Below, one piece after another: positions 1,840 to 44,000 of a stretch of 44,588 nt of DNA. Source of the stretch: Rhizaria sp. SCN 62-66 (taxonomy: Eukaryota); contig MEDY01000157.1 of assembly GCA_001724265.1 (NCBI GenBank), positions 62,001 through 106,588 on the forward strand, read 5' to 3'. Numbering within the stretch: the stretch's first letter is position 1; every line of letters begins with the position of its first letter. The translations under genes and the position numbers were made by a program. The notes beneath the pieces are model-generated. The model was not told the DNA's origin and searched no databases. It saw only the letters and a list, made by a program, of their open reading frames with translations.

Positions 1840-3106
1840 ATGTTCCGCTCCGCCCTCGCGAAGCAGTCGTGCCTTCTCGCCGGCAAGGCCTCAGCGTCTT
1901 CCAGCTCGTCGGTCGCGCTGCTCTCCGCCTTTGCCCCTGTCGCGCGCTTCTCCGCCGCCGCCGCCGCTGCCGACAGCACCGTCTCCGACGCCGCCGCCGC
2001 CGCCGCTGCCGCGGCGTCGTTCCCGCTGTCGTCGACGGCGCGCCACCGCCAGCGGCGCGTGCAGCCGCCGACTGCGCGCGGCGAGGCGTGGGGTCAGGTG
2101 CTTGTGAGCAACAAGGACCTGGTCGTGCCCACCGCGGTCTGGACGCCTAAGTCCGTCCGCACGGGCGTCGTCGGCCGCAAGGTTGGCATGCTCTCGCTCT
2201 GGGACGGCCACGGCCGCAACATTGCCTGCACCGCCATCCAGATTGAGGACTGCCAGGTACTTTTTTACCCATCACTTTCCTGTGAATATATCTCGCGTGC
2301 ATCAAATTCGCGAGTTACTATTGTCTACACATTGATTTATAAGAGCAGTACATACCTATTGTTATGACCCTTTACCTCACATTTATCATCTATCTTTGTG
2401 GCATTTTGCTTCATTTTCCATTCGTTATCTTTCCTTCCGTTCTCAGGTCCTCGACGTCAACCCCCAGGTCTCGACCCGCCGCCACACCCAGACCATGTCC
2501 CTTGGCGCGGTGAACCGCAAGGAGAAGAACGTGACGAAGCCGATGCTGGGCCACTTCCACCGCGCGCGCGTCGCCCCGAAGCAGTTCATCCGCTCGATCG
2601 AGGTCACGCCCGACGCCGTGCTGCCCGTGGGTTGGAAGATCGACGCGCGCCACTTCGTCGCCGGCCAGTTCGTCGACGTCACTGGCAACACCACCGGCAA
2701 GGGCTTCCAGGGCGGTATGAAGCGCTGGGGCTTTGGCGGTCTCTTCGCCTCACACGGTGTGTCCGTCTCGCACCGCTCCATCGGTTCCACTGGTATGCGT
2801 CAGGACCCCGGTCGCGTGTTCAAGAACAAGATGATGCCCGGTCACATGGGCTGCGAGAACCGCACGACGCAGAACCTGCGCGTGTTCAAGGTCGACCCCC
2901 GGCGCAACGTCATCTTTGTCATCGGCTCTGTCCCGGGCCAGGACGAGCACGAGCTGATCGTCACGGACGCCGTCAAGCGGCCCTTCAACCCGGACTCGCC
3001 GCCGCCGTTCCCGACGTTCGTGGCGCCCGCCGACGACGCGCTGGCCGAGGTCGTGATGCCCGACTCGCTGCTCGGCCCCGACCCCTTCGCCGGCGGCGCG
3101 GTCTGA
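1840..3106 (+). CDS. MRPL3: Mitochondrial ribosomal protein uL3m, 358 aa; exons 1840-2256 and 2447-3106
   Basis: Bacterial-type L3 motifs RTGVVGRKVGM, GQFVDVTGNTTGKGFQGGMKRWGF, SHGVSVSHRSIGSTG and PGRVFKNKMMPGHMG. N-terminal presequence-like extension. Phase-0 intron 2257-2446 (gtactt...ctcag). Stop TGA. Confidence 0.93.
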
Positions 3107-6713: not shown

Positions 6714-8149
6714 ATGAGCGCATCTGCCGCTGCTGAGCGCCCACAAACCGCGCCTTCTCGCCGTGGTTACCCTAGCCAGGCTCGTACGCGCCCTTCCAGC
6801 GCCGCTGTACACTCTAACAACAACAATGACGGTACGTTCTCGCATACCTCTTCGCTCTCACCAACTTTGCCCCATTAAACCACATATGTCTTTCTCAAGT
6901 GACGTTAGATCTCAACTGTATCACCCAAAATGGTATTGAAACACTTACTATGTATCTAATAACTGCGTTTTTAACTTTATTCAATTTGTTTGTGCGATGC
7001 TTGACAACAGGCGAAAAGAAGCGCAGTAAAGAGGAGCAGGACAAGTACTACTCTAGCCTCGCGACGCCAGTGAACCGCGACTACCCGGACATCATCTCCG
7101 GCATGGACAGCGAGGTTAAGAACTGCACATTTCAGCCGTTTATTAGCAAGGAGTCGCGCAAACTTTTCAGCACGCTGCGCAGCTTCGACGACGGGTGGCG
7201 CGAAGACGTCAAGGCCCGGGAAGAGGCCCGCAACGAGACGCCGCCACTGGACCAGCACTGCACGTTCAAGCCGGCGTTGTCTTACACGTTCCGCGGCAGC
7301 AGCAAAATGCGCCCCGCAGTTGAGACTAAGGAAGAGTGGGCGGCGCGCATGTCGCGTTACAGCAACCGCAGTGCGCAAGCTGGCGGCGACTTCACTGCCA
7401 CTGCGAGGTACGCTAGCTAAACACTTCAATCCATGATATATCCGTTAAAGGTGATCATTGAGAGATGTTGTTGTATAGCATATTATTTAATTTAGATTCT
7501 TATTTATCAACCGAAACTAACATCTTAGTCTGTGTAATTTGTGTTTCCCAATCTCATTTGTTTCCTCCTTAGGCCCGAGTGGAGCAAGGACCTGACGTTT
7601 CAGCCGCGGCTCAACCTGGCCAAGACGAAGGAGATCCAAGACCGCAACAATGACCACCGTGACTTCCTCGCGCGCTACGCGGACGACATGGCGCGCCGCA
7701 AGCAGGCGATGAAAAGCCGCGAAGAGGCCGAGAGAGCGCGCACCGGCACCTTCCACCCGGCCACCACGGGTGGCGCTGCTGGCGCGGGCGCGGGCTCCGG
7801 CGCCGGCGCGGGTAGCGCTGCAGCGGGCACGGGCGTCAGCGCCGCGCTCGCAGGCTGGTCGGGCGCGGGCGGGCCACGCAGCGTCCTGACGAGGCGCGAG
7901 CTGGACGCCTTTGTGTACCGCATGGAGGTCGACAGCGAAAACCGCGCGCAGCGGTTTTAGGAGCGCAACCGGCTGCTCGGCGTTGGGCTCAGCGACGACC
8001 CCAGCAAGCGGCGCGTGGACCTGCGCGCGATTGAGGTTGCGATGGGCCGCGAGAGCGATGCCGACGGCGGCTATGGGGGCAAGGGCGGCAAGAGAAGCGG
8101 CCACAAGCGGCCCAAGAGTGCGAAACGCGCCCAGAGTATCGGCGTATGA
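6714..8149 (+). CDS. Hypothetical 363-aa protein with (C/L)TFxP repeats; exons 6714-6831, 7011-7407, 7573-8149; internal in-frame TAG at 7958-7960
   Basis: Introns 6832-7010 (gtacgt...acag) and 7408-7572 (gtacgc...ttag) keep the frame. Repeats CTFQP, CTFKP, LTFQP and GTFHP. After the TAG, 62 more codons with the same GC3-rich bias run to TGA at 8147-8149, where AT-rich sequence begins. Confidence 0.72.
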
Positions 8150-9026: not shown

Positions 9027-9752
9027 TTAGTTGCGGCCGCGGCCACCGCCACGGCCACCACGGCCGCCGCGGCCGCCCCTGTCGCCGCCGCCGCCGCGGC
9101 CGCCGCGACCGCCGCCGCGGCCACTGGCACCACCACGGCCGCCGGCGCCGCCCCGGCCGCCGCTGCGGCCGCCGGCGCCGCCCGCGCGCGCGCTGGCCGT
9201 GGCGGCAACCTTGTTGGCCTTCTTCTCGGCCTCCTCGAGCAGCGCGTCGAGGTTGAGCGAGTCGGGGAGCAGGTAGTAGCGGATCGTGCTGCCGCGGACT
9301 GAGAGCGTCTTGAGCTCGGTCGGGTTGCGGTTCTTTACGACGCACTTGACGTCCTTGAGGTGCGTGTTCATCGAGTGGTCGACGCCCACGACGGTGCCCT
9401 CCAGCACGGTGCCGTTCTTAAGCTCTGTAGCGTGGGGGCGGTCGGAGGGCGAGGGAGCGAGATGCGGGAGCAGGAGCGAGGAACGTGAGCGCGAGGGTGA
9501 GAACGGAAACAATCCTGGCGAGGTTTAGGGAGGATGAAGATTATGAGATGATGAAAGATGATTGAAGAGATGAAACGTACCAAGAGTGACCGTCTCATTC
9601 GTCAGCCGCATAAGGAAGCTATATCATAGAAAATACAAAAGAGGATGGAGGTGAGATTCAAAGCGAGAGAACGCGCGGCAGTGGATAAGGTTGAGCGGGA
9701 AAGCGATGACAAAGAGGGTTGTGGAGCGAACGTACCGGACAAGATGCTGCAT
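9027..9752 (-). CDS. SNRPD1: Small nuclear ribonucleoprotein Sm D1, 150 aa; exons 9752-9736, 9618-9581, 9424-9027
   Basis: The spliced product [45 protein letters not shown]...[23 protein letters not shown] matches the SmD1 Sm1/Sm2 motifs and is followed by a Gly-Arg tail. Both introns begin gtacgt. Stop TAA. Confidence 0.95.
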
Positions 9753-10162: not shown

Positions 10163-13100
10163 TTACTTCTGTTGCAGCGAATTTTGCATCTGTTGCGCCA
10201 TCATCTCAGCATCCTTGGCAGTACAATGCGCCTGAATCACACCCCAGTACTCCGCATTCTCGTGATACGGAGGTGGCATTAAGACGTAATCGATACCGAA
10301 CTGCCACCGCAGTGCGAGACGCTCCATCAGCACCTGCGACACGAAGTTAAGCTGCCCGTCCACATTCGCACCGCCAACAGTGCTCGCAGCAATACTCGCT
10401 GCAGAGCTGGGACTCGTACAGGGAGTGCAAGCGGCCTCGCTGGCGGGGTTGTTGAGGGTGTCCGATCGAGCAACCAGCGTGGTCACCTTAGGCGTGAACG
10501 CGGCAGATCGAGGGGATAAGCTCGAGAGGCTCTGCAACGCCGTGGTGTTGGGGGTCAATGGGGGCTGCTTAGCTTCCCGCGCCACGTTATCACCAGAATC
10601 GCTATGCGCTGCACTCGCGAAGCCGCTTGCGCCGTGCGTGCTAGAGTTGCTGTTGCAAGGTGTGTTGCTTCCAGTCCCAGGCGCAGTTGTGACAGTCACG
10701 CTCACGTTGCAACGGCTGCCTTTCGGCACATTCCCCGTCGTGTTCCTGTCACCGTCAGTGACCGCGAGCACTGAGCCCATTTCGCGGTCGTGCACAGAGT
10801 CAATGTCGCTCATCGTCATCGCTGCTTGCAGCGGCTGCTGCGGCGCCAGTTCATAGGCCTCGCGCAAGTCGCGGACAACGTTGTTGTGCACATCCTGGAG
10901 CACAAGAAACGAGCGCTGCATGTCGGCGCGCATCTTGGCCCAGCCTTCAACGCGCACGCTCTTGGCGACGTTGAGGTCGTTGCTGCTGGCGTTGACAATG
11001 ATCAGCGGCGGGTTCGGCGTGCGCGGGTGCACGTCGACACTTACACTCGACCGCGGGACTAAGTACCCCGGCAGAGCAGCTGTGCTCGCGCTCTTGAGGT
11101 TACTAGTGCCGGGGACGTGGGTACCCGCGAGCGATGCAAGCGGAGGCGGGCGAATGGCGTGCACACTGGGGGCGAAGTACGTGTCTGAGTGGAAGTAACG
11201 GAAAAAGCGCAGCAGCAGTGTCTCCATCGGGAAAAGCATCTCAGCAAGATCATGCGGCGACGGGATCTGCACAGGAACGGAAGAAGCTTCGGCACTCGCA
11301 GTCGCGACGCTGTCTGCAGTGGCGGGCTGCGTCTGCGCCTTGGCTTCATTCTCGCTGTCATTGATGCACTGGACACCCGCAATCTCAGCAGCAGCAGCGG
11401 CGGCAGCAGCAGCAACGGAGGCAGCATCAGCATCAGCAGTCATCGGCGTATCTGATGCAAGGGGCTGAGGTTTCGGTGACTTGATGTTGAGCCGATCAAG
11501 CAGCGGCGTCATCATCGAGCGCTGGCCGTGTAGAGAGTTGCCGATGCTGCTATCGTCGCTGCTGTTCTTGCTCGCATGGATGCCATCCTTGTTCTTGCCC
11601 TTGTTCGCAGACTTGAGACCGTTGCTCAAAACTAAGCCGCCGTCCTCACCGTCACTGTCAGCATAGTAGTCTTCATCGTCCTCATCATCGTCATCATCGT
11701 CACTGCTATTCTTGCCGCGATTGCGGCCATTAACGCCACCATCATCATCGCCATCACTATCCAGATCATCGTTACTCCCGCGGGTATTCGCCGCCTTGCG
11801 AATGCTGCTGTTGTTCACAGAAAACCTCTGCTGAGCTGCACCACGTGTGTTGGCGCCGGCGGGCGTGTGGTGGCTGTTGAAACTTGAACTTGGACTCGGC
11901 CTTGGGGGCGCAAACGACGGCAAACTCGAGCTGTTGCCAGCGCTATTCTTGTTCACAAGATGCGGCACCGACTGCGACGCCGTGGGAATGCACAGCGACA
12001 GCCGGGCACTGCGCCGCACGCCGCTGGCGCTCACACCGCCTGCTAAGATACTCGCATCCTGCGTCGTGTTATCCATATCTGTGATGCTATTGTCGTTGAC
12101 GCTCGCGTTTGCGCTCTCGCGCTGGCGTTTTAGCGGCGTTATCATGTACGTCTGTTCACCGCCAGTAGTTGCGTTCACGTCGTTGTTGTTGTTGCTGTTG
12201 CTGCTGTTGTTGTTAGCGGCGATTATAATAGAGCGAGAACGCGAACGGGTTACTGAGCCCGGCACCAGCAACGGCAACACAGACCCATTGCCCGCACTGC
12301 TGCTGTTGCTGTTGTGGCTGAGCACTGATGAGACAGAAGCCGACGCAGTCGGGAGTTGCGGCAACGGCAGAGGCAAAGTCACATCGGCATCGTCGTTGTT
12401 CTTACGACCAGCAGGCGTCGTCGCGGTCTGGCTTTGCGACAGCGAGATCTGGCTGAGTGACAGCACAGCTTGGCTGACCGAGCGCGTCACGCGCACGGGC
12501 TTGAGCGGCGTGACAAGCGAGGCCAAGCTTGACGAAACATCGATGATGTTGCTCGCGTCAATAGCGTTGCCCGCACTGTTGCTCGCGGTATTGATCGGGG
12601 TCTTGGCCGTGGCTTTCTGACTGCGCTTGCTGTCATTATCGTCGTCATCATCATTCATTACCGGCTTGTTTGCAGCCTTGACCTCAGCTTTGTCGTTGTC
12701 ATAACTCGCCGCCTTAGCATTGTTATGAGTCGCAGTTTTGGAGCTCGCGTTAGCAGCGGTGCTTGCGCTCAAGCCAAAGCTTGACTCGACGGCGAGAAAA
12801 TGCGCCACCAACATCGCATAGCCAAACGAGTTGAGCGTGCCGTCATACGCGGAGTTGTTGCCGTGCATGCGCGCCCAGTGCTTGATCAGAATCACCAGCG
12901 GCCGCAGCCGCGGGTCCCGGGCAACGAGCGCGCGCAAATACTCGGCGTTGGTGAAGGCGCATGGGTCGGCGGGCGAGAGGTCCACGGCTTGCTCGCCGCA
13001 AAACATGTTGTTGGCAGCAGGCGCGGCGTCGAGAGAGGGCGCGAGATAGGGCAGGAGGTACTTGAGCTTGCTGCGGTCGGGGATTGGAGACACGTTTTGC

Positions 13101-15019
13101 AAGTCCTCGTATTTCCGGAAGAAACGCATAAGGTAGGAGACGACTGCCATGCTCGCGGAGACAAAGCTAGACCCCTCTGCAACAAGCTGCTTCTTGGGGT
13201 CAATCGCGATCTCAGGGATCGGACCGAACGCAAGCTCGATAGCTGTTTTCGCGTCCTGCTCAATCCAGTCTTCGTTCTGCGTTCCTGTTTCAGTCTCTTC
13301 AGTGTAATCCGGGTTGGTGTTGGTGGCCGTGCCCCAGCGGCGCCAGGCCCGCTCTGCGCCGACGCCGCTCCTCAGCACGGCCTGCTGCTCGGGCCCCAGC
13401 TGGCGCGGCACCAAGACGCCCAGGTCGGCGTCCGATCCCGCCATGGCGAGCCCCGCGGCGAGCGAACCGTAGGGCCGCGCGCTCGCCTGCGGGTGCCAAG
13501 CGCGCAGCGCGCGCGTGGGCCGCCCGGCCGCGGCCCAGAGCAGACGCGACTGGTGCGGCGACAGCAGCAGGCGCGAGAGCAGGCCCAGCGCGGGGGAGAA
13601 GGCGAACGGGCCGGGGCAGGGAAACGACGTGATCGTGGGGTCTTTAAGGGCAGACGGAGATCCACCGTTGCCGCTGCGTCTGCTATCGCTCTTGCCCTGC
13701 GCCTGTGTCGTTGCTACAGGGAACGCCGTAAGCGTGCGTAGCTGCGCGAGCGCTTGGTAGTTAATGAATGGCTCTTGGTAACGACTTGATGTGCTCAGGT
13801 TGCTGAATGCACTTAGAGCATGGCTATCTGTGCTTAGATTGATTCTAAACTGACTGGCACCGTCGCTGGCGTCAGTGTAAGCGCCCTAAGAGTACTGGCC
13901 GCCATACATGCCATCAACGAACAAGCCTTGCCCTTGCTGCTGCAGCAGCAGCTGCTGTTGCTGGTCCTGATGCTGATTCTGTTGCTGCAGCTGCCACTCT
14001 GCGAGAGGCGGAAACTTTTGGGGATCGTTGTAGGGATGAACCGCGTTGTTGTTACCGACTCCGCGACCCTTGTTGTTGTTGCCCCGGCCACCCTTTTGCT
14101 GCTGTCTAGTCGGCGCCTGACGAAACGTCTGCTGCTGCTGTTGCTGCTGGCTCTGCTGCTGAGGCTGCAGTTGGCCCGGCATGAACGGCCGAGAGCTCGC
14201 GTTGATATTGCTGTTGTTGGTAGCGCTGTTGTTTTGTGCGCGACTACGAGTGCGTTGGTTGCCGTTCCAGGGGCCGTGGCCGCCGGGCGCCGCGAAGTGG
14301 GCATGGCCGCCGCCGCCGTGGTTGCGGCCGGTGGTGGCGCTAAACGTCATCAGTGCTGGCTGCGACTGTGAGTGCGGCAGCGCTTGCGCGTCCGGTGCAG
14401 GCGGCTGACTGAACAGCAGTGGCGCCTGCTGCTGGTGGTGGTGCCACGGCAGCGGCTGAGGCTGCTGGTACTGCTGCTGCGGGTACTGCTGCTGATACTG
14501 CTGCTGCCGAGGATGGCCGTTGCTGTTATCGCTGTAGAACGGAGTCACGGGGACTGACGCATCGGTCCGACTCGCGACGCCGTCAGTCGGGCCGCTCAGA
14601 CTGGTTACCATTCCGCCCGCGTCCACGGGCGTGGTGGCCGCGGAGGCCGGGGCAGAAGCGGAGAAGTGACCATGGGCGTAGGGGGCGCCGGCGACAAACT
14701 GCTGCTGCTGGGGATAGTAGTGCGGCTGCTGCTGTTGATACTGCTGGTGCTGGGGCGGATACGCGTACTGCTGCGGCTGATTGAACTGAAAGTCGCCTAT
14801 ATTGTGCCCGGGAGGAGCAATTGTGTGACTGAACCCACCACCAGACGCGTAATCCCGTGGGTGTTGGTGCTGCATTTGCTGCTGCTGCCGCTGGTTGTTG
14901 TATCCTCTGCCGCTAGCACCACTACCGGCAGTGTTGCCCGCATTCGCACCACTGCCGCTCCCATTCCCTGGATAAGGCGCGTGTGGCGGGCGCTGTTGCG
15001 AGTTTCCTTTTGGGGGCAT
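10163..15019 (-). CDS. Non-canonical poly(A) polymerase / terminal nucleotidyltransferase (Cid1/GLD-2/mtPAP superfamily), ~1,618 aa, intronless; internal in-frame TAG at 13886-13888
   Basis: ORFs 13886-15019 and 10163-13444 share a frame, and the 147 codons between them are open. Pol-beta NTase motif PYGSLAAGLAMAGSDADL, third Asp in QAVDLS, RPLVILIKHWARMHGNNSAYDGTLNSFGYAMLVAHFL, and PAP-associated LLLRFFRYF...LIIVNASSNDLNVAKSV. Q/N/G/P/Y-rich N-terminus. Stop TAA. Confidence 0.85.
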
Positions 15020-15613
15020 TGTGCGCGCAGAATAAGCAATGCCTACTCACGGGGCAATGCGCAATATCCGCGGAGTAACAGATTCAATACGCACAAGGGA
15101 GGAGAAAAAACTGTGCAGTAGGACCGAGAGCAGCGTTTGAGGAGCGGAAGATAAATATGATTGGCGTGAGACATTTTGATCGTCAAGAGCACTGATATAA
15201 GAGCCATGGTTACAAATGTACACATAAAATATAGCTCGAATGTAGGCGTTTAAATATGCTGAGTTATGTACGTGCTAGCCTTCCTTGAAGTCCCGCACCT
15301 GCAGAGCAAGTTTGCCGTTGCTCCGATGCAGCAAAGAGTGAGTGACTGTGATCACGAGGTAAACACACACATTTTCAGCAGAATATATTGATCTATCAAC
15401 ACATCTGCATATGAAAACAATGCGAGAGTGTTATACATAAATTCAAACGTGTGTATATAGATAATTTAGTCGTGTCGCCCTCGCGGCTATGCGCTGGCAC
15501 TCAGTTTTGTTAACATAAAATCAATTCTGCATCATAACTTATCAGTCGTATCTTGTTCATCGAACCTTCACAAGCACAGCAAATCACCTGCATCAGAAGA
15601 CATCCGTCATTCT

Positions 15614-18600: not shown

Positions 18601-21600
18601 CAGCGGGCGAGCTGGCGCCGGCCTTGTCAGCGGCGGCGTTGTCAGCGGCGGCGTTCGCGGTGCTGTTTGGGGCGAAGGGCGAGTAGAACGAAGAGCTGGA
18701 GTTCTTCACAGTGCTGCTTGCACTGCTGCTGCTCTTGCTCTTGTTGGTGGGCGTAGAGGGCTGCGGCAGAGTGAGGTCGTCATCGCTGGCAGGGAAGGCG
18801 CTGGGGCCACCCTTCGTAGGACCGGCGCCGTCCTCCTCCTCAGCCTCCTCAGTCTGCGCCTGCTGCTTCGCCTTAGCCTCTGCAGCAGCAGCAGCAGCGG
18901 CGGCGGCCTCAGCTTCGGCAGCAGCCTTAGCATCGGCCTCGGCCTTCGCTTTAGCGGCCGCGGCCTCCTCCTCAGCCTTGATACGGGCAGCCTCAGCCTC
19001 CGCAGCAGCCTTCGCCTCAGCATCAGCCTTCGTCTTAGCATCAGCAGCAGCCTTGGCTTCGGCCTCAGCACGCGCTGCCTCAGCCTCAGCTGCAGCCTTG
19101 GCGTCGGCCTCAGCCTTGAGGCGAGCAGCCTCAGCGGCAGCCTCCTCTTCGGCCTTCTTGATACGAACAGCCTCGGCCTCGGCCTCAGCAGCAGCCTTGG
19201 CGGCAGCGGCGGCAGCCTCCTCGGCAGCCTTGCGCTCAGCAGCGGTTCGCACGGCCTCAGCAGCAGCCTCCTCCTCAGCCTTGGCTTTGGCATCTGCCTC
19301 TGCCTTGGCCTTAGCCTCAGCAGAGGCCTGTGCCTCAGCCTTCTTGGCAGCCTCAGCAGCAGTCTTGGCCTTGGCAGCAGCCTCATCGTCGGCCTTAGCC
19401 TTGGCAGCAGCCTCGGTTTCGGCTTCGGCCTTGGCCTCCGCATCAGCAGCAGCCTTAGCAGCAGCCTCAAAAGCAGCATTGGCAGCAGCCGCCTCAGCAG
19501 CGGCGGCCTCGGCGGCGGCGGCCTCGGCGGCGGCGGCCTTGGCGGCGGCGGCAGCCTCGGCAGCAGCCTCAGCGGCGGCAGCAGCCTCGGCAGCAGCCTC
19601 AGCGGCGGCAGCAGCCTCGGCGGCGGCAGCAGCCTCCGCCTCGTCGTCGCCCTCGACCTGCACATGGGGCAGCGTGGCGGCGACAATGCTGGCGTCGTCC
19701 GCGAACAGCAGCAACGCGCTCATCAGCAGCGGCTGCGCCAAAGGGCGCAAGCCCTTGGACTTGCCCGACTTGTGCGACTCGGTCTCAGTCTCGGTCTCGG
19801 TGATCGTGGCGCGACTGCTGTGGCTGCCGAGGGTCCCGTGGCTGCCGTGGTCTGGCAGCACCGTGACCGTGGGCGCGGGCACGGGGGTCGGCAGGTCGTC
19901 GTCGTCCGCTGCCGCCACGCGGGTGCCGTTAGTGCCCATACTGCTGTTGTTGTAGAAGTAAGGCAGCGTCGACGCCAGCAGCTCCGACTGCGCGGTCGTG
20001 TTGAACGACTCCGTCACAGACTGCTTCTGCTCCAACTCGGTGTCAGCGTCGCTGGCGACAGCGACGGTCGCGTCGTCGTCGTTGCCAACCTCATCGTCGC
20101 TGCTGTGCGTCGAGTCCGTGGTCACGACGTCTCTATGGCCCTTAGACTTGCCACCGTTAGCCTTAGACTTCGCCGAGGAGCGGCCGCTCTTGCCCTTACC
20201 GGAACCCTTCTTGCTGCCCTTAGACTTGGGCTTAGCAGTCTCTCCACTAACAGCAACGGTCTCGGACTCAGCCTCGACCGCATTGGGCTCAGGCGCAGCG
20301 AGTGCAACCGCAGCAGCGTCAGCAGACTCAGCCTCGGCGGCCGCAAACTCGGCCTCAGACTCGGACTCGTTCTCGGCATCGGCGCCAGCCTCGGCCTCGG
20401 TAGCCTTGCCCTTGCCCTTGCCCTTCTTGCCCTTGCCCTTCTTGCCCTTCGCGCTGGAGCTGCGACTACGGCTCTTGTTCTTGCCCTTGCCCCGCGCGCT
20501 CTCCGCGCTGGGCACAGCCTCGGCCTCGGCCGCAACAGCGCTGGCTTCGGTCGCGGCGCCGGCGTCCTGCGTCTTGGTCTTGCTGTTGCTGCGACTCGTG
20601 CTGCTGGCGAGCGCGCTGAGGTCGCGGCGGCTCGGCGACCGCCCGCGGGCCTTGCCACTCTTGCTCGGGGCCTCGGCGTCAACGTCAGACTCGTCGGTCG
20701 CGTTCGCGCCCGTGTTTGCACCCGCGGCATTGCCACTGTCGATGGGGGCGACCGGCGTGACCGGCGCGACGGGAGAGCGGATGCTCGAGTGTGGCGACGG
20801 CAGGCGCGGCTCGAAGCGGCGCTTGTGGCTCATCAAACTCTTGTTCCCCACGACGCCGCTGCCCGTGGCCTTGCCCTTGTTCTTTGCCTCGGCGTTCTCG
20901 GCAGCAGCGGCGGCGGCGGCAGCGGCAGCGGCCTCGGCCTCGGCGTCGCCCTCGGAGCCAGCGACATCGTTGTCGTTGTCGCTCTCACTCTCCTCTTCAG
21001 CGGCGTCGCCCGCAGCGGCAGCAGCAGCAGAGGCGGCCTTGGCACCCTTGCGCTTGGCGCTGCCGCTGCGCCGACGGCTCCCGCTGCGGGCGCGCGCGCC
21101 GCCCCTCTTGCCGCCGCGCTTGCCGCCCTTGCCGTGGGCCGGCTTCAGCAGCTTCGCCGTGTCGACCGGCACAGGCGCGTGCATCGCCTCCCAGACCGTG
21201 ACGCCGCGCTTGAACCGCTCCTCATCCTCGCGGCGGCGTTTCTCGCGCTCGAAGATGTCCACGTCCTCATCCCCGGGCTGCTCGCCCTCGGGCGCGTCCT
21301 CACCGAAGAGCCGCACTAGCGCGCGTACAGCCGCCAGGTCCTCCGACGTCGCCTTGCGCACGCGCGGGCCCGTGGGCGAGAGCGCCTCCGAGGCGTCGAT
21401 GCGGCCCTCGGCCGCCAGGTGCGCCATCAGCAGCTCGATCGCCCGAGCCTGTGATAGAGAAAAAAAAAAGAGAGGCAATATCGCGATTTGATGAGCGTAG
21501 TTCGGTTTAAAAAATATACAGAATATATAACAATACCAAATATCCGTTATTGTCAGAGGTTAATCCATTAAATTCGTTGGGCATGTCAAACAGCTTGCTG

Positions 21601-24600
21601 TACGTACCTGTGCGTCTGCGTGGAGCACCGCGGCGCGGAACTCGCTGGTGAAGGACGACAGCCAGTGGGGTGTGTATGACGGGTTGGGGTCGTCGAGGCT
21701 GTCCGCGAGCGCAGAGAGGCCGCCGGACATGTAGATGTCGCCGGCGCCGGTGATCGCGCCCTCGCCGTCCTCTTCCTCATCCTCATCCTCCTCCTGGCCC
21801 TCGCCGTCCTCGCCAGCTCCTTCGCCAGCGCCCGCGCCCTCTTCGCCCTCGGCGCCGCCCTCCTGGCCGCCGCTGAGGTTGAAGTTGACGATGCCGGCGG
21901 CGAGCGCGTCGGCCACGCTAATGTCCTTTCCGACGCCCTTCTTGCGCAGCTCCTGCTTGACCACGGTTACGATCTCCTTGGCCTCGTCGGGCGTCAGGTC
22001 GTGGCCCGCCTGCTTGAACACGGCGCGCACGGCAGACATCTCCTTGGCCAGCGACGCCGACGCACCGCCGGCGCCGCCCTCGGACTGTGAGGACTTCTTC
22101 TTGTCTGAAACAAAGCCGCCCTTTGACGGCGCGGCGAACTTAGACCCGGCGCCACCACGGCGGTGGCGGCGGCTCTGGGCGGCGCCCTTAGCCTTGCGGC
22201 CTCTCGCACCAGCACCAGCCTCAGCGTCCGCAGAGTCATCGAAGGCGCCGTACGGGTCCGCCTCAGCCTCCTCAGCGTCGACATCGTCCTCAGCAGCAGC
22301 GACACCGGCGGCATCAGCGTCCTCAGTGTCCGCTGCGCCCTCTGCCTGGGCCTTGGCGACGGCCTCCTGCATCAGGCGGTCGGCCTCGGCCTCAACCTCT
22401 GCCTCGGCGGCCTGCTGCTCGGCCTCCATCTGTGCCCAGAGCGTCGTGATGTCCTTCTCCGCCAGGTCCTCAATCCGCGTGGCGCGGGCGCGGACGCGGT
22501 CCAGCCACGCGCGCACCGCGAACGTGAGCGTGAACGGGCTGTAACGGTGCAGCAGGTGGCTGTGCGCGCCGTGGGCAAGGCCGGCGACAGTAAGATCGGA
22601 GGTGCGCACTGCGGGCTCACGAACCAAGTCGATGCCAGTGTCAACACGACGCGCGCCCTCGTTCTCATTGACATTGGCGTTGTTACTGTGTTGCTGGAGC
22701 TTCTGCTTGAGGTTGAGCGCCTTGGTGAGCGGGATTGTCGACACGAGCACGGGCACCGGCGGCGGCGGCACCAGCGCCGACAGCATCGCGCTCGTGAAGG
22801 TCCCGCCCGACTGGGTGCGCCACGGCGCGTTGGCGTCGAGCGTCAACGGCCGGTGCAGCGGGAACTTGGTGTAGGTCAGCTGCTTCGCGGTGAGCTCGCG
22901 CGCAGTCTGGTGCACCAGCGACGCCACCGACTCGCCGTCCTCCTCCTCTTCATCGCCATCGTCGTCACTGGCGCCGTCGTCGCCGTCGCCGCCGTCGCCG
23001 AGCACGAGGTCGCTGGGGTCGACGCCCGAGAGTGCGGCAAGCAGCTCGCGGAGCTGGATATCCTGCGTGGGCGAGGGCGCCGAGTGCAGCAGGCGACGAC
23101 GCACGGGCCACGAGCCCACGGGGCGGCCCGTGTGGTCCGTCACACGCACGCCACGGTAGCCCAGGTCCTCGACCAGCGTGTCGATCAGCGCGCTCAGCTG
23201 CGCGCTAGTCACCTCGGTCACCTCCTCGTCTTCCTCGTCACCGTCCGCAGCCTTCGTGGCAGCTTTAGCATCGCTAGCGTCTGCAGTGTCGCCCTGCTTC
23301 TGCCCTCGCTCACCAGCAGTCGTATCAGTCTTAGCCTTAGAACCCTTACTGTCCTTTGCAGCAGCAGCAGTACCAGCGGCAGGAGTCTTGCTGCCGTCGT
23401 GAGCCTTGGCGTCGTGAGCCTTGCCGCTTCCGAGCACGGTGACGACGGTGCGGGCCTTCTCGATCGCGACGGCCATCGCCTCGCCCTCGCTCTTGCCCTC
23501 CTTCATCGCCGCCTCGGCCGCCGCCTCGGCCGCAGACACCACGGCCTTGACCGCCGCGCGCGGGTCACGGCCTTGGTCCTGCGCGCCCAGCGCGGCCGCC
23601 TGCGCCAGCGCCATGAGCTGCGCCGACGCCTCCTGCGCGTCGACGCCGCCCAGCCCCGCACCAGCGCCGCCAGCGTCCGCGTCAGCGTCGTCGGCGTCGT
23701 CGGGGTCGCCGAAGTCGCCTTCCTCGGGGCTGGTGATCTTCTCGCCCGCGAGCAAGTGTGCGCCCAGGAACATCATCGCCCGCTGCGCGCCGCTCCCGGA
23801 GGCCCACACGGGCGGCGCCTGCGAGCCCTGCTCGGCGTCGCTGCGGTCGTCCTCGTCCTCGTCCTCGTCGCCGGCGATGATAGACAGCGAGTCGTCGTCT
23901 AGCCCGATGGCGCGCGAGCGGCGGCGCGCCTCGCGGCGGTTGCGCGCGTGCTTGAGTTCGGTGCGCCAGTCCTCGGCGATGCGCCGCACGCTGAGGATGA
24001 TGTTGCCGAGGAAACCAGCGTCCTCCTGCTCCTCCTCTTCTTCTGTAAAGTGACATGAAAGCAGTGAAGGCAAGAAAATAGCATGTGAAAATACAGAATA
24101 TGAGTCAAAATTGCGAATTTTGTGCGAAAAGTATAATTAAACAAACAGTACAAGGTCATGAAGCAATGTTAGTATAATTAATCTCGAATTGTAAACGTAC
24201 GGTGCACCTCGACTTCGTCGTCATCATTGTCGTCGTCATCGTCGTCGTGGCCATCAGCGTCGTTGTCGTCTTCGTCGTCGCCGTCGGCGGTGGCCTCAAT
24301 CGGTTCGTCGTCAATCAGCGCGTAAGTCTTGGTCCCCTTGAACAGGACCGAAAAAATAGAGGTCGAGTTGAGGCTGTGGTTGTACCCCACGTCACGCTGC
24401 TTCGACTCGACGGCGGGATCGATCAGCACAGTCGCAGAGGAGCCTGTAGCCGTCACCGCGGCGTCAGAGCGGGTGCTGCTAGCCGTAGCGGCGTCGGCAT
24501 CCTGTTGTTGTTGCTGCTGCTGTTGTTGCTGCTGCTTGAACTTCTTGGTGCTCTTGTTGGCGTTGTCACGGTAGCGACGGCGCCACAGCCGGCGCTGTTC

Positions 24601-35000: not shown

Positions 35001-38000
35001 GGCATACCCACTGCAAAGAAATGAGATCGGGTGAAGCAGCGTGAGATAAGATTTGAAATCTAGAAATCAGGTTTGATATAAAATGTTATGTTGACAGAAA
35101 AAGTGGGCATCCCGTGATAATTCTAATGTCGTACCTTGATTGCGGCGGCGATGCCGCATTTGTCGCTGCCCTAAACGTCGTGAAACCGGCTATCTGGTCC
35201 ACGGGATCTGTCGCCATCGTCTCATACGGCGTCTCCTGCACCCACCGGCCGCCGTAGAGCGTGAACGCAGGGATGCCTTGCATGGCGTACTGCGCGGTCG
35301 GATCATTCACCAGCGCAAACGTATGCGACGCAAGCGCAGGCAGAGTGGTCGGGAGTAGACTGTAGTTCGCGGGCGCCGATGGGCCAGGGTCGGGGACAAT
35401 CGCGTCCGCCCACACCGCGCCGTAGCCCAGCTCGGCGTCCTCGATCACGGGGTCGCTGGCGTAAGCGCTGCTCACAACGATGACGGACAGCGTTTTGGAC
35501 AGCACCGCGGCGGACGGGGCCGCGCCGGTGGGGGGCGCAAACATGGCAGTAAGCTGGCCCGTAAGTGTGTTGATGACAAACATATCCGAGCTTGAGGCGT
35601 GGCCCTGAGTGAGGCCGCCGCCACGGGGAGAGGCGTGAAGACGCATCTGGGGCACAAGTGAAGATTCGTAGACAAGCTCGCCTCCAGCTGCCGATGTGGT
35701 GAAGTGAGTGTTTTTGGACCTCGGACCGCTGTACAAGGTCAGTACATCATTTGTAGGGATCCCGGGTGCAAACGAACTATACGCAAGCGACTCCTCAACT
35801 CGTCCCCCGCTGCCAAGTCCGGCTTTACTGATCGCATTGGACCATAAAGCAATAATAAGACCCGCGCTATCTGCTGTAAGGGTGATTGGAGATTTCAGAG
35901 GCAGCGTAAATTCGGTGCCGGAGGTGCCGAAGTCGGCGCGTGTGTGTTCTTTGGTCGAATTGTCAGCAGGGAGGTAGTCATTCAACTTGGCATTTGGCGA
36001 ACTATTCAAGCTCATGACACCAAGTTTAATCAACACAGACACATCGGCATCCGCTGGGCGTGTGAGATAAAAGGTGATATTCCGTAATGTCATTCCGGGG
36101 AGCAGTCCTGCTTGTCTGAGCAGATCGCGCGGCAGGAAACTCACAACTTTACTGGGAGCGGCGTTGCTGCCTAGAGAGTCGAGCGGGTATGTCAGCGTCG
36201 TCGGGTTTGCGATTGTGGCGAAATGAGTAGGGCGGGACAGTGTGATCGGCGCCGCAGACCGATAGATGTCAACATACACGCCGCGCGCAGTCATGCCGCC
36301 AAAGCAGTACACCTTGGTGCTGTTGGGTAGAACGTCGCAACTGTGGTCGTAGCGCGAACCCATAGTACGCGCAGACACACTGCCGGTGAAAACCGGGATA
36401 ATAGCAGCGTCAGTGATAGTTGGCTGGAGCTTAAGGCTGTGGCCAGCAAGAAGAGTCCACGTTTCCTGCACAGTGTCAAAGCGCCAAATATCGTCAAGCG
36501 CACCGTGCGCGCCGACACCGCCGCTGAGAATGAGATCCTCGCCCACGGACACAAGAGAAGCGCGAGCGCGGGCTGACGGGCAGAAGCTTGCGATGCCGAC
36601 AGTGCTCCCGACAACAATATCAGACTCCATGGCGATGTAGTCTCCATTCGTAGAGCAGCCGACGTACTGCCAAGTGATGGCACCGGTTACTTCCGCGCGA
36701 TACCGCCACAGATCAGCGCGGTAGACAACCTTCAAGGTCGCGGTGTTAGGAATAAGGCCGCCGTAGGTGTACACCCAATGTTGGTTATCATCGGTGCGTT
36801 TCAGGATCGCAGAGCTGTGAAAAGCGCGGGCGCCAGGATAGCCGGGCGAGTAGGATGCGGGATCGCGGCGGCGCTCGTGGCCGTTGGAGCCACCTGAGAC
36901 AATCTCCGTGGGCGGTAAGATGGTGGGAGACGGTTTGGCACCAAAGGGGTCGCGACCGGGGACAAGCTCAGGTGGCACTTGAAGGGATGACGCAACCACC
37001 TGGATCCGCCAGAGACGCTCGAAGTACTCTCGCTAAAGTAAAACAAAAACAAACAAAAAACACGAATATATCGGTGAGATTCTTGAGTCGAATTGCGGAT
37101 GAAAACACTCAGCGATGCATGAAAGCATTGTAAAAATGAAGCAAAGCATGATTAAAAAGATTATTGTAAAACGTACCTTGCCGTCTCCTGTGCTGACAAT
37201 GCCACCGAACAGGAAAAGGCAGTTGCCCGGTGGGTAATATACCAACGACGCGCCCATATATTGCCCTGTGTATGCCACCTTGCCTTCGGTCGCATTCGTT
37301 TCGAGCACCGGCACCTCAGCTGCAGAGCTACGGTCCTGTGCAATCAACACGCTGCTGCGCGCAGACAGTAGGTGCGCTGAAATGACAGCAGACATCCCTG
37401 TCGTATCTGCACGGTCTGTGCCGCCCGCAATAAATGTCACCGTAGAGCCCAGGGGCATTCCCAGAGTGATCGCTGCCGTCCCGGTCAGACTGTGCGTTGT
37501 CGTGCTGGCGGCGTAGAAGCGCGGCTTACCACCAGGCAGTGGTGTGCCGTCAGTGTCGACAAGAGCGCGCACGGTGAGTGGGGAGCAGAGCCGGCCGACT
37601 GTGCCGGTCATGCACGAGCATGGATAGGCAAGGTCGTTGGTCGGTGTGCTAGTGTTGCCCATACACGTCAGGGACTGCACTGCCGGTGCAGTCGGTGGCG
37701 CATACGCGCTACGGCTGGTCTCGCAGTGTTCGCCGTAGAAACCAGTGGAGCAGTGACACTTGTAACTCTTGGTACTTAGACCAACAAAGAGCGTCGGCGA
37801 GGTAGAAATACAAGTCGCGGAATTGCAGACAGAGCAAGTGCCCCCATTCACGCACGGGTTGGTTGCGCACGGCGACGTGAGCGCAACCAGTGCGGATTGA
37901 TCGACGTCAGATGCCATTTGGCTAAACTCGTAATACGGGTATGAGGAAGTCACACCGCTCGCATGATAACTGGTGGGGTAAGTTAATCCACCGGTGCGCA

Positions 38001-41000
38001 TGAGCACGGCAGTTGGGTTAGTGTACGCTGCGTTCACAGAACCGACTGTGCTAGGAAGCATCAAGAAAGAAGCTCCAAGCCTGGCATCGTCACTCGTAGT
38101 TGCCCATGTGAAGCTCTGAGACGGGGGCGTGGCGTTGCTCGTGGGGTTCTTTAACCACGCCCACGCTGCAACCTCCGAGCCGACGCTGTGCGACAAAGGT
38201 GCAGCAGCTTGCGCGATGAGTGACGTGCGCACCCATGAGCTGTTGTGTAGTTGCTCTGCAAACACTGCGAACACAGTGCCATCAAGACATGATTCATCCT
38301 CGTTGTCTGCATAAATTCCGTCGTTGATCGTTGTGCCCGGGTTCAGCATTGGCCGCAATCCGTAGCCGACGTACAAAAGCCCCTCCGCGTCGGCGGTCAT
38401 GCTGGCGTAGGCGCGCGCGCCGGGGGCCTGTAGCCGCGAGGGGGCACCAATAGTGACAGCAGTGCTGCGCGCGTGCGGGCTGCCTTGGACGGCCCAAGTG
38501 AGCGGGCCGGAGAGGTACGCCCACTGCTTCTTGGAGAACGAGAACACCCAAAGGTCGGACATAAACGCCGGCCGCGGGAGCACCCCGCCGGAGCCCAAAG
38601 GCACACCGTGAAGAGAACCGCCGAAGAGATAGAGATAACGGCCGTCGTGTGAAAAAGTCATGCTGGCGCCGAGGCGACAGCCAGGGTTGTTGGTGGAAGC
38701 GTAGGCGCCCGGTGCGCCGGCGGAGGGCAAGTAATCACCCTCGCCAAGGTTGGAGAGGCCGGACATGCGTGCCCACCTAGAACAATACAAAAATATGGAG
38801 CGACATGCAGAATTGTGAGTGATTGAGCAAGGTTCAGTGCAAACCATCAAGCATAGCTGAGCTGAGGGGTCCGTAAATTAAGTAGAGGCATCTCTAACAC
38901 AACACAAAGTGAAACGTACACTGCGTCATGAATTGCAGTTGATGAGTTTATCTTAGTGTACAGGCACCACAAATCTGTGTTATATGAGTCGCCGTAGTTT
39001 CCGGACATATATGTCTGCGTTCCCGAGTACATGCAGAACATTGAGTCGTTGTCGGCAGCCGTTGATCCTGAGAAGGATGCCTTGGCAAAGCCCTGGCGCG
39101 CGCCAGGATGGTAGCTGGCATCCGTCTCACCATTAGAGCCGTACACACTTTGATAAGGGTCAGTGCCTGCTGGGTATGATGTTGTGTTCAAATGGGGGAA
39201 GCCTGTCGTTGTCCAGATCTGTAACAAGAATTGGCAAAGCAAAATCAAGCCAAAGACAGTAAGAGTGAGCATTAATAAACAAATGTAACCACAACGCGCG
39301 CATGTCAACTAAAAATAGATCTGTCTCATAAATGGATGTCAGAATTTCATTAACCGTAAAGCACTTTGAGTACCTGAAACGAGATCGAATACACCCAGAG
39401 GCCCGGCTGTGCCACAAAACTATCTGCGTACAAATACATGTACTAGCCATCAGGCGAAAACCAGGCATGTGATTCCAGACTCGGCGGTGGTGCAGTCGCA
39501 TTCACATATGTTTTGCCGATAGAAAATGCCGGGATCAACGCCTGCGTGAAAGTGTGCGTCTCCGCGTAGGCCGAATTGCGCGGCATTGCAGTCATAGTGT
39601 TCGCAATCAAGTTCACCCGCGTGAACGCCGCACTGGCGGTTGCTACTCCAGTCACAGAGTTGATTGTCATGCCACCAAAGCTGTACACCTCACCTGTGCC
39701 GGGCCGGTGCGCGACGGCAGCGAAGGGCAGCACAGTCGGTGCGGTGTTGCCCGCGAGCAAAACTGAACCGTGTCTGAGCTCGAACTTAGCCTTTGCTGCA
39801 TCGACTGATACGTTGCCATTAGCGCACTGCGCGCCCTGTGTGTAGCTGTTGCAGTGGCAGAATGATGACCCGCCACCGGCGACGCAAGCGCCCATAGCGC
39901 CACAATAGATGAGAGAAAAAGATGATGGACATGTGTTGCCCTTAGAGCTTGTTAGTGAAGTGCGGATCTGCTCTCCGTAGACAATATCGTTTTGGGGCAA
40001 CCATGGCGTGAACAATGCATTCATATTGTTCTGCAATGTGGAGTTATGGCAAGCGTCTGAGCCGTAGGCTGTGCTATCAATACATGTCAAATTAGTAGGG
40101 GTATGGATGACGTCAATCGTCCATAAGTCGTCATGTACGGTCAGCTGCTCGCAGCTCTCGAGACCACGTTCCACTGCCGGGTTTGCAAAAAACGCCTGCT
40201 CAGCCACGTGGGTCGAGCCCACAGTCCAGCCGCCGCGGAGAAAAAGCGACGTGTCCGTGGTCACCCGCGCCGAGAGCAAACTTGAGGACGGGATCGACAG
40301 TGTGGCGCCAAGGCGCGCGCCGGGCCAGTACGGAAACGGAACCTCACTGCCTGGCACTCCACTGCGGGTGACATTTGAGCCGGTGCGCGTAATCGGCGCG
40401 CTGAAGGCGCGAACAAGGCGCCAGGTCAAGTTGGCACGGAAGAACTGCCACAAATCGTCCAGCTGTGGGGCCGCATGGAGCGCGATCGTGACCGGGGGCT
40501 GCGTCAGCGGGTGGCTATGCAGGGGGGACCGCAGCAGCAGAACGGGACGCGCGGTGTACCGGTCGAAGTTGCGGGATGTCTTTGAAGCTTCGGGTGTGGC
40601 ATACTTAAGAAGAGACATGGAACGCACTGTTTGGCCCTCGTGCATTGCAAGCCCGAATTTGACTGCCTGTGATGTATCTATGCCAGCACCTACAAAGACG
40701 TACTCAATAGCCATGTAGAGTATGGCGTTTCCGGACGACAGCGTCGAGGAGAGAGTATCGGTATCGTCTTGGACGTCCTTCATATAAGGGGTATTGATGG
40801 CCATAAAAGTTCCAGGCGCCCAATTTAACGGATCAATCATGACGCCAGGTTGTTTGAGCAAAGAAAGCTCAATAGCATCAAGATAATGCGGGCCTGCGTT
40901 GTCAAAGTCTCCCAACAATGTCGGAACTAACAGCGTACGAACGCGGAAGCGACTGCTTCTATCCCACGTTCCGGACTCGGACAACATTGAATGTTGGCCT

Positions 41001-44000
41001 AGTTTGACCATAATGTCCAGCGAGGGCAGGTTGGAATCAACCGGCAGACCTGCAGCGAGGAACTCGTCACTCGAGTACAGAAACGCATGCAGCGACAACG
41101 CGTTGCTCTCGGTCACAGTGGAGTTGAAGCGGCCCTTAAGCGGCAGCGTGAACGGCGCAGCAGCCGGCAGCGCATCGATCGCTGTTTGTACACCATCAGT
41201 GCCGTCAGGACGCACGAACGCGCCAAGACCGTGGCCGCGGCCGCCGTAGAGGAAGATGTCTCCGTTGGCCGCAGTGTTCATGGCGTGGAACACGCGGCCG
41301 CCGGGGAGGGACGGAAGGTTGGAGCTGGCGGGAAAGATCACGCGCGGCTGTCCGCGCTCACCAGCAGTCGGCGTCCCCGCCTTTTCATCCAGCCGCTGCC
41401 ACGCTGCGAGGGCCGGGGGCGTGAGGCTGAGCAGCCAGAGACCGGCCAACACGCCCGAGTCGTTTTCGGGCCCTGGAGCCGTCTGCAGCGTCGTGTCCAC
41501 TGCGCTGGGGGCGGAGAGCAGCAGCGCGGAAAGCGTGCCGCCGTACATGACGAGGGTGTTTGCCGTCGCCGTGTTGTGCGTCTCCCACACCAGCGCGGCG
41601 TAGGCGCGGGCCGCCGGCGTGGACGCGCCACCGCGCAGAGGGAGGTTGCTATCGGAGCTCGTTTCGGAGCCTAAGACGCGGTGCCAGGACAGGGTCGTCC
41701 CGTCCGAAAGATTGTCGGCGATGTACATCGAGTCAGACTCGTAAACGGAGTTGTAACCAGCCGGATTTTGAGTCGATGCCAACTTGTACCCGCCGTAGAT
41801 GACGATGATCTTTCCGTGCGCAGCCATTGCAGCTGCGGCAGTGGGCGGGGGTGGAGACAAGTTGTCGATTGCGCTGGCCGAGGAAGGCCGCGGCTGTGCC
41901 GCTGTGTTGCCGCGCCACCACGCCCACTGCCGCTTGTCGAGGCTGAACGACCACATATCATCAAAGAATGCCTGCTTCAACACGTTCGCGGTGATGATAG
42001 GATAGTAAGCGCCACCAAAGAGCCAGATTATGCGCGTGGATGCGTCATACGCTAGCGACGCTGAGTGCCGCGCCGCTGGCCACAACGACGGTGAGTAAAT
42101 CCCGGAAACCAGCCCGCCCACGCCGAGACCGGCGGGCAGCCGGAGCAGCGCGGGGTCGCCGTGCAGCAGCGTCGTGGTGTTGGCCAGCGAGTCGACCATC
42201 CACAGGTCCGACAGCAGCGCGGGCTCCGCCATTGGATACTTTGCTGGGGAAGCAAGTGGGAACGTTTGCAGGGCAATACCGCCGAAAAAGAACGAATACT
42301 GACCTGACAGAGCCGCTGTGCGGAGGGGGCTCTGCGGGCCGGCTGCAGCGCCAGAAGCGGTAGCATGTAGGTAGCGCGGGCGCGGGCGCGGGGCCGGGCG
42401 CGCAGCGGAGACGGACAGCGGCAGCTGCGGCGCCAGTGAGTACCAGTCCTGAAGCGGCACGGGGAACTCCACTGCGGAAATAAACGGGTTCGACGCGCGG
42501 TGCGGCTGGTAAAAGTTGCGGGGGGTAAATGCAGAGATGGATGCGACTCCGGACGAGGCCGACATTGGACCCATTTTCAAAGTCTGATAAAGCGACACAG
42601 CAAAGAGATGTGAGTGAGCATTATTTTTACAATCATAGCAGTAAAAAACGCGTGTTGAGTGAGTACTAGTCGTACACGTAATGACGTACCTAGTTGAGAG
42701 TGTATGTGGTCGAGAGCCATCCGTCAGCAGTAAATCCCAGTGTCGGGTCCGAAGTGAGCTCCGACGGGGCGGACACAAAGTACATCGACAACACAAGATA
42801 AAAACTGTTCGCGTCGACGCCACTGACGCCGTGGATGTGCAGACTCGAGATCGGGATTTGGCAGTACCCTGAGATCAGGATCTCATGGGGCGCGACCGGC
42901 GGCACCACGGATACGGTGGCTGAGCCGCCGTCGAGGACCCCGGCGGTGTTGGCGGGCCGCGCGCTGACGGTGCAGAACGTGCCCGGCGCGCCGCGGTACG
43001 TCTCGGTACTGCTGCCGCCGCGCTTGAGCCCCAGGCGGAGGTAGCCGCCGCCGTTGCCCTGGAGCCCGTAGTCTTTCGCCAACCAGTTCGCTGATGCTGC
43101 GGAGAAGTCAACCTGCCAGCCGTCGGTGGTGGTTGATGCGACGGTGTCGAGTCTATACACGGGGGCCGACACCGTCAAAGTGCCGAACTTGAGCGCTGGC
43201 GTGACCGTAAACGCGTTGCTCGCCACAGGAACGGTCTCAGTGCTGGAACGCCAAGGCACAATGCAGGAAAAGATGCCAAGATACATATCCGGGATGTCGG
43301 CCGTGATGCTTACCGTGGGGATCTCCATGGTCGCCGTGAGGCCGCCAACGATCGCGGGCGTGCCGAGCGTGATCACACTGCTCTGCAGGGGACTATAGTC
43401 AAGATAACACGCGATGTTGGTGGAGTTAAACGAAAACGTCGCATTTGCACTCAGTGTCAGGACAAAATATGCCGTGCCCAGCGCCGCAATGGAGCGTTTG
43501 ATGCTGCCGCTGTACGAGAAATGGATATCGACACGGTTATTAGTGCGAATCCACTGGTTCTGGTAGTACACTTTAGGACCCCTAGGAGCAGTCAGCTAAG
43601 GCGCGCCAAAGATATTAAACGTTGGTGAAGCTGTAACTATCGAGACGTTGTTGAAGTCGGTCATTACCGCCATCGTGTGAGAGTCTGTCAATGTTGACGA
43701 GGGAACCAATGAGACTTGGCAGGAGAATGTGATGTTTGTGGCAGGCGCAGTGGTGCGAAATACAATATCTTCGCTCGCAAAATTGCCAATAGTGCCAACA
43801 ATTGTCACAGTGGTAGTCACTGACTCGATGCGGCAGTTACGCATGGTGCCCGTCTGGATGACGATGAAGGAGGAGGAGTCCATTAAGGAAAGCTGAAGTG
43901 TGGTGATGCCAACTTCGAGCGAGGCCACTGTGCCGCTGAAGGCCACAGTGGAGCCGCTAAGGCCATTTTCGATCGTGAAGGCGTGCAGTGCCGTTGGGAA

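Follow-up and report, generated by a model that had tools for sequence, protein, structure and literature searches.

Nuclear genetic codes in which UAG has changed meaning and UAA is kept as a stop have, in the account given by PMC5304391, long been considered constrained, and few lineages with such a code are known from that account. In the rhizarian exLh, UAG encodes Leu, and 384 in-frame UAGs occur in 71 genes, which end in UAA (56) or UGA (15); in Iotanema spirale, UAG encodes Gln and makes up approximately 8% of Gln codons. In both, UAA and UGA are kept as stops (PMC5304391). UAG reassignments are also reported in phyllopharyngean ciliates (PMC11687900). A possible further instance is described here in a contig deposited as Rhizaria sp. 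SCN 62-66 (assembly GCA_001724265.1, contig MEDY01000157.1, positions 62,001 to 106,588), where the frame of a gene for a predicted Cid1/TENT-like nucleotidyltransferase is crossed by a single TAG. The whole stretch of 44,588 nucleotides (nt) that was analysed is called the window, all positions are window positions, and TAGs are referred to by the lower of their outer coordinates (TAG 13886 for the nucleotidyltransferase gene).

The window shares several features with the systems described in PMC5304391. As in exLh and Iotanema, TAG is the only in-frame stop, it occurs in several unrelated genes, and the organism is not a ciliate; as in exLh, genes end exclusively in TAA or TGA, more often in TAA. 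The change would also resemble that of the phyllopharyngean ciliates in affecting UAG alone (PMC11687900). The basis of the comparison differs, since here gene models were built de novo on 44.6 kilobases (kb) of genomic DNA, whereas those for exLh and Iotanema are transcriptomes aligned to orthologues (PMC5304391).

Five in-frame TAG sites and nine gene ends are most simply accounted for if UAG is a sense codon and termination is confined to UAA and UGA. A nuclear reassignment of UAG with UAA and UGA kept as stops is given a probability of roughly three in four, and the locus is, with similar likelihood, a further case of a known but rare type of variant code. The window is eukaryotic, nuclear and intron-poor, and its spliceosomal introns of 106-179 nt, its guanine plus cytosine (GC) content of 50-70% and its genes with up to 12 kb of coding sequence would be unusual for ciliate macronuclear DNA.

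The nucleotidyltransferase frame across TAG 13886

The frame runs on the minus strand from ATG 15019 to TAA 10163, and its sole interruption is the TAG at codon 378, with 377 open codons upstream and 1240 downstream. The 377 N-terminal codons are Gln/Gly/Asn-rich and end in ...GMYGGQYS; the junction in translation reads ...GMYGGQYS-TAG-GAYTDASDGASQF... and the bases directly 3' of the TAG are GGCGCT. Past the TAG, frame 0 is free of stops for 147 codons and scores best for coding, while each of the other two frames holds four stops in its first 60 codons.

Minus-strand translation places the TAG in frame where a preliminary description of this DNA had reported it, and all details of that observation that were checked proved right. 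The same TAG is present in a separately deposited metagenome contig of 5427 nt (L001), which is 100% identical over window positions 11412-16838, and in a 337-nt contig from sequencing run X3, of unspecified library kind, which covers 13656-13992 with 0 differences. These three assemblies may share or derive from related samples, so their agreement speaks for reproducible assembly rather than for independent biology, but it excludes a one-off assembly slip. The TAG is present in the assemblies.

A listing of open reading frames with ATG, GTG and TTG as starts contains none of the three in frame between TAG 13886 and Met 13444, in agreement with the preliminary description. That methionine lies within YGSLAAGLA-M-AGSDAD, and both a HMMER alignment and an alignment of 26 sequences bear out the further claim that a start there loses the GS of the active site. 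Public gene calls divide the locus at these two points: P0027 and P0153 both stop at ...GGQYS, and P0002 (1093 amino acids (aa)) begins at Met 13444. Coordinates of these and other features are collected in Table 1.

Table 1. Positions of the nucleotidyltransferase gene, in-frame TAGs, introns and neighbouring genes in the window.
Feature	Position	Strand	Basis or remark
Full coding frame, Cid1/TENT-like nucleotidyltransferase gene	10163..15019	-	1618 codons + TAA, single exon
In-frame TAG, codon 378, in predicted disordered linker	13886..13888	-	Translation, AlphaFold model
Predicted N-terminal helices and first strand of catalytic domain (pLDDT >90), lost if the start is Met 13444	13445..13600	-	AlphaFold
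Catalytic motif G518 S519 ... D530 x D532 (G140 S141 D152 D154 after the TAG)	13424..13468	-	HMMER, 26-sequence alignment
Met codon 526, first ATG/GTG/TTG past the TAG; start of public gene call P0002	13442..13444	-	
Third catalytic Asp, D302 after the TAG	12980..12982	-	Invariant in 26-sequence alignment; modelled strand E299-305
In-frame TAG, first long exon of Kelch/EGF gene; 203 open codons before, 301 after	43596..43598	-	Gene model
In-frame TAG, last codon of exon, abutting donor GTACGT at 42689	42690..42692	-	106-nt intron 42689-42584 restores frame
In-frame TAG in Kelch-like blade, 23 codons ahead of donor CAG/GTACTC at 39373	39443..39445	-	Intron 39373-39219, 155 nt, restores frame
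In-frame TAG, exon 3 of plus-strand gene (exons 6714-6831, 7011-7407, 7573-8149; 1092 nt)	7958..7960	+	Coding score
Control intron, canonical, 144 nt, GTACGT...TTTAG	37033..37176	-	The apparent in-frame TAG at 37033 forms its 3' splice site
Control intron, canonical, 159 nt, GTACGT...CACAG	21449..21607	-	Holds the apparent in-frame TAA at 21560
Example introns, by start	42689, 38919, 37176, 24200, 21607, 9735, 9580	-	
Example intron, by start	6832	+	
SmD1 (LSM domain, RG-rich tail, two introns)	9027-9752	-	Ends TAA
Mitochondrial ribosomal protein uL3	1681-3106	+	Ends TGA
1892-codon protein with GPS motif	29014-34692	-	Ends TGA

Judged by its motifs and its modelled fold, the product of the gene is a Cid1/TENT-type nucleotidyltransferase of the Pol beta-like superfamily and a likely RNA-tailing enzyme. 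A disordered, Q-rich N-terminal region is followed in it by a linker, likewise disordered, with the TAG inside, and then by a catalytic domain with a low-complexity insertion of about 530 residues. In HMMER comparisons with PDB sequences, the hG[GS]...DxD motif (YGSLAAGLAMAGSDAD) aligns to FGSLESGLALKNSDMD of Schizosaccharomyces pombe Cid1, within a stretch in which ...ARPYGSLAAGLAMAGSDADLGVLV pairs with ...FGSLESGLALKNSDMDLCVLM of Cid1. The stretch ...DPRLRPLVILIKHWARMHGNNSAYDGTLNSFGYAMLVAHFL pairs with the Cid1 central domain (E 1.6e-12), and in that alignment the central-domain motif KxWAKxR...GTLSSYGY is present as ILIKHWARMHGNNSAYDGTLNSFGYAMLVAHFL.

The 26-sequence alignment consists of the query and 25 library homologues, with numbering from the residue after the TAG. 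In it, G140, S141, D152 and D154 are nearly invariant, Met 13444, at position 148, falls between GS and DxD, and neither K335 nor W337 varies. At E up to 0.001 there are 706 matching library proteins, most of them aligned on the central-domain stretch.

The GS...DxD motif, the third Asp, a KxW...GTLNSFGY central-domain motif and the fold are common to this protein and the Cid1/TENT enzymes (TUTase, GLD-2, mtPAP). Unlike them, it adds the 377-residue Q-rich N-terminus and the insertion, and it scores below the Pfam gathering cut-offs for the NTP_transf_2 and MTPAP-like palm families (15.3 and 15.1 bits against 21 and 27). The PAP-associated domain is not found by sequence either: Pfam lists no PAP_assoc match, and the C-terminal stretch 10580-11230 has no significant PDB sequence match. 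The string LLLRFFRYFH resembles a PAP-associated domain by eye only.

In an AlphaFold model built on the 26 sequences, the predicted local distance difference test (pLDDT) score exceeds 90 for residues ~96-165 and ~300-370 after the TAG, and residues 1-95 are predicted to be disordered. Upstream of the methionine at position 148 the model places three helices and strand 1, along with the GS motif. Foldseek gives 83 PDB matches with E up to 0.001, and those listed are all mtPAP, Cid1, URT1, TUT1, TUT7, GLD-2 or RET1, at probability 1.00; the TM-scores of 0.25-0.43 are low, since disorder takes up half of the model. On this model the enzyme requires a minimum of about 52 residues on the N-terminal side of Met 13444, with the TAG some 95 residues ahead of the point where the fold begins; no start downstream of the TAG can yield the predicted catalytic domain. 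With no usable downstream start codon, a fold that needs these ~52 residues and no plausible intron, the enzyme appears to be reachable only through the TAG.

Further in-frame TAGs and the candidate amino acid

Four more TAGs lie in frame elsewhere in the window. In total, six gene models comprising 10,885 codons contain five TAGs, distributed over three of the six genes, and in these models in-frame TAA and TGA occur as the terminal codon only. Out of frame, the same models contain 105 TAG, 143 TAA and 472 TGA. Nine gene ends were assigned, six with TAA (10163, 15614, 35086, 9027, 3552 and 5580), three with TGA (29014, 3106 and 8149) and none with TAG; past eight of these nine stops the in-frame coding score is negative. 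After each of the five TAGs, by comparison, frame 0 is stop-free and the best of the three. The four additional TAGs and the absence of TAG from the nine gene ends strengthen the case for reading through TAG 13886.

Three of the additional TAGs belong to a Kelch/EGF gene on the minus strand. The exon restored downstream of intron 42689-42584, which follows TAG 42690, has 1070 codons; a donor at 42783 was also considered for this TAG and dropped, as it breaks the frame. TAG 39443 lies inside a Kelch-like blade, completed by the 23 codons past the TAG, that can be aligned to others (SPDG-X-YMYLYAD...GLWVYSISF against SHDG-R-YLYLFGG...DLWVFSFSK and three more blades), with a DLW-type motif after the TAG. 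TAG 7958 is in a separate, plus-strand gene, in which the 62 codons past the TAG have a GC content at third codon positions of 0.84 and a coding score of 1.05 bits per codon, the highest of the segments tested; GC falls only past TGA 8149.

Under the proposed reassignment, UAG would be decoded as an amino acid and translation would be terminated only at UAA and UGA, and the nucleotidyltransferase gene would then be one uninterrupted exon of 1618 codons. The ribosome would insert the amino acid via a cognate or near-cognate tRNA, such as one with a CUA anticodon, a release factor, perhaps an altered eRF1, would ignore UAG, and the decoding would presumably hold genome-wide.

As for the amino acid, Gln is the weak favourite, at a little over one half. 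In the blade alignment, the column of TAG 39443 holds Q, R, R and N in the other blades, which are paralogues and not orthologues. CAG, which is one transition away from TAG, occurs 101 times in the nucleotidyltransferase gene and 315 times in the six models. The polar residues in the blade column, the abundance of CAG and the precedent in other lineages are the hints towards Gln. The preliminary description had favoured Gln for the Gln-rich surroundings of the TAG; its view that the enzyme is reachable only through the TAG is supported by the start codons, the fold, the lack of a plausible intron and the other TAGs, and Gln as the residue is a tentative assignment.

Introns, counter-evidence and alternative explanations

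Ten introns were collected whose removal restores long frames. They are 106-179 nt in length with a GC content of 0.32-0.56, and their donors are GTACGT in eight cases and GTACTC and GTACGC in one each, so that the donor site is near-invariant, with GTAC in all ten. A CTCAC-like element is often found 25-45 nt ahead of the YAG. Position matrices made from these ten introns were used to score splice sites: the two control introns score 35.3 and 36.9, true introns score 5.2-32.1 when left out one at a time, and 120 random coding positions give a median of 5.4, a 90th percentile of 10.5 and a maximum of 17.9. A trypanosomatid polycistron was considered for the window and dropped, as canonical introns are present.

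Several observations weigh against a sense UAG. The coding score around TAG 13886 (13939-13700) dips locally to 0.29 and 0.08 bits per codon, and the hexamer GTACTC at 13895 is the same as that of the accepted donor at 39373. At TAG 43596 the best intron pair scores 13.8, within the range of true introns, so an intron is possible there. Use of TAG is very low, at 5 in 10,885 codons (1.2% of Gln codons if it encodes Gln), far rarer than in exLh or Iotanema (PMC5304391). All gene models are de novo, derived from splice consensus and frame logic without complementary DNA (cDNA), and the count of 0 TAG among nine gene ends is a small sample with weak statistics. Since C-to-T changes in CAG-rich genes give mostly TAG, the fact that TAG is the only in-frame stop is not decisive by itself, which weakens the argument. 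A tRNA scan and an Rfam scan of the window gave no match of any kind. Among the contigs listed for the poly(A) RNA run X1 none covers TAG 13886 or the control intron 21607-21449, so that this run speaks neither for nor against a sense UAG.

It is unlikely that, under the standard code, the TAG lies in an unrecognised intron or belongs to a different gene model, with GTACTC 13895 as the donor or the TAG itself as the intron's 3' end. The two other apparent in-frame stops of the window do fall in introns (the controls of Table 1), GTACTC serves as a donor in one gene model, and just past the TAG the GC content is low (0.52) and the coding score weak. However, the best frame-keeping GT..AG pair over TAG 13886 (339 nt, GC 0.54) scores 7.9, against 35-37 for the controls and below the 90th percentile of random positions, and the best pair in any frame reaches 13.0. 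The GTACTC at 13895 is the sole GTAC near the TAG, and with it as the donor the TAG would occupy intron positions +8 to +10; those of its acceptors that keep the frame lack a pyrimidine tract, whereas the better acceptors, 13703 and 13642, break the frame. Candidate introns over the TAG have a GC content of 0.51-0.55, compared with the 0.32-0.56 of the collected introns, and no intron was found over it that combines a GTAC-type donor, a pyrimidine tract with YAG and an AT-rich body of 106-179 nt with a restored frame. The 10-nt gtac...tag that the preliminary description had pointed out is there as described (GTACTCTTAG, 13895-13886), and splice-site scoring agrees with its conclusion that no plausible intron covers the TAG. 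It gave no support to the TAG as an acceptor for an upstream donor, which that description had named as the finding that would overturn it, with no such candidate ranked above the best pairs. The frame stays open past the TAG with stops in the other frames, and an intron here would leave a separate special explanation to be found for each of the four other TAGs. The dip in coding score is attributed to the low-complexity linker, but the dip keeps an intron alive as an explanation at a low level.

It is rather improbable that, under the standard code, the TAG is an error in the sequence or a nonsense allele, for example CAG to TAG, or that the gene is a pseudogene of recent origin. The abundance of CAG and the possible kinship of the samples behind the repeated assemblies lend this alternative something. 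The window, L001 and the X3 contig nevertheless agree on the TAG, and no catalytic residue downstream of it has been lost; decay does not fit three genes with five nonsense codons, no frameshift and no in-frame TAA or TGA in 10,885 codons. Given equally little credence is ambiguous or gene-specific readthrough, in which TAG would mostly be a normal stop and the locus would yield a short Q-rich protein and a longer enzyme. Very rare use of TAG would suit leaky sites, this TAG does lie in a disordered linker between two modules, and with nine gene ends such readthrough is hard to tell from full reassignment. Yet TAG occurs at none of those ends, and the two TAGs of which one sits within a blade and the other closes an exon argue for efficient decoding, as a truncated product makes little sense there. 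CARYYA is a readthrough context, and the TAG is followed by GGCGCT instead; an enzyme made solely by readthrough would also be unusual. Least probable is a pair of genes, a 377-residue Q-rich protein ending at the TAG and an enzyme translated from its own message with a non-AUG start in 13885-13600. Public gene callers split the locus in this way, but no in-frame ATG, GTG or TTG is available there and both parts share one frame with no intergenic space, whereas elsewhere in the window genes are separated by AT-rich spacers that score negatively for coding.

Neighbouring genes, environmental sequences and significance

The other genes of the window are varied. The Kelch/EGF gene (44207-35086, minus strand) has five exons with 8574 nt (divisible by 3) and 2857 codons, in which three TAGs precede a terminal TAA. 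It encodes Kelch-like blades and Cys-rich stretches of EGF-like type, and opens with a sequence resembling a signal peptide, the Met of which must sit in a further upstream exon. Its halves are paralogous, with 32% identity between residues 631-780 and 1657-1822 (E 4e-13). The minus-strand gene at 27933-15614 comprises 12,003 nt (divisible by 3) and 4000 codons with one terminal stop and introns 24200-24043 and 21607-21449; it encodes Ala/Glu/Lys/Ser low-complexity repeats and matches no Pfam family. Pfam likewise assigns neither the plus-strand gene nor the Kelch gene's N-terminal exon to a family. For the uL3m exon, an Atlas search bore out the family and gave no usable taxonomy.

Public runs that carry the sequence are labelled activated sludge and wastewater. 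From poly(A) RNA run X1, a library in which DNA carry-over is possible, perfect contigs cover 12686-13033, in the catalytic domain, and 14702-15118, comprising the N-terminus and 99 nt upstream of the ATG. The best-matching run, X3, has single-letter differences at 13159 (A>G) and 16249 (C>T), which suggests strain variation in the source community. Apart from a few short pieces (about 30 nt) that fall on low-complexity sequence, run X2 contributes only a 237-nt contig at 13087-13325, in the catalytic-domain region. This contig, from a second study, of wastewater, at a depth of 2.3, lacks two letters at 13175, which would shift the frame, and otherwise shows no differences; the gap may be an error at such depth or reflect a related strain. 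Run X4 contains next to nothing of the locus. No credible splice joint is present among the read joints listed; long-range joints were disregarded because their sides are only 20-24 letters on low-complexity sequence.

Searches for relatives returned little beyond the locus itself. A word-based protein search retrieved only the window's own 1093-aa call, and an exhaustive protein search its own two fragments, P0003 and distant TENT enzymes that match the conserved core only. P0003 (888 aa), the second-best match, is an 80-residue tandem-repeat protein in which a 41-residue stretch (LKDPTITSFPCPG...LLSRLLLS) matches eleven times, and is taken as a chance or low-complexity match rather than a homologue. 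The metagenome scan found one identical contig and two core fragments of 40% identity, and exon 3 of the plus-strand gene, used as a query, retrieved nothing; in the protein and metagenome searches no relative or orthologue aligned across any of the five TAGs. A literature search for an activated-sludge protist with a changed code, or for a GTACGT donor consensus, gave no lead.

It may be, and this is put forward tentatively at somewhat short of even odds, that the organism represents a lineage of eukaryotes not yet described and separate from the few known cases. There, UAG and no other stop would have become a sense codon, so far used at only about one codon in 2000, which would be codon capture at an early stage, in a genome rich in GC and poor in introns whose palindromic GTACGT donors scarcely vary. 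A practical consequence is already visible in the public calls for the nucleotidyltransferase gene, which standard gene callers split into a Q-rich fragment (P0027/P0153) and a truncated enzyme without the GS motif (P0002). Other TAG-containing genes of this organism are probably all mis-called in the same way in public protein sets. If UAG is indeed a sense codon here, this environmental genome with its sparse TAGs would add a data point on the onset of stop-codon capture.

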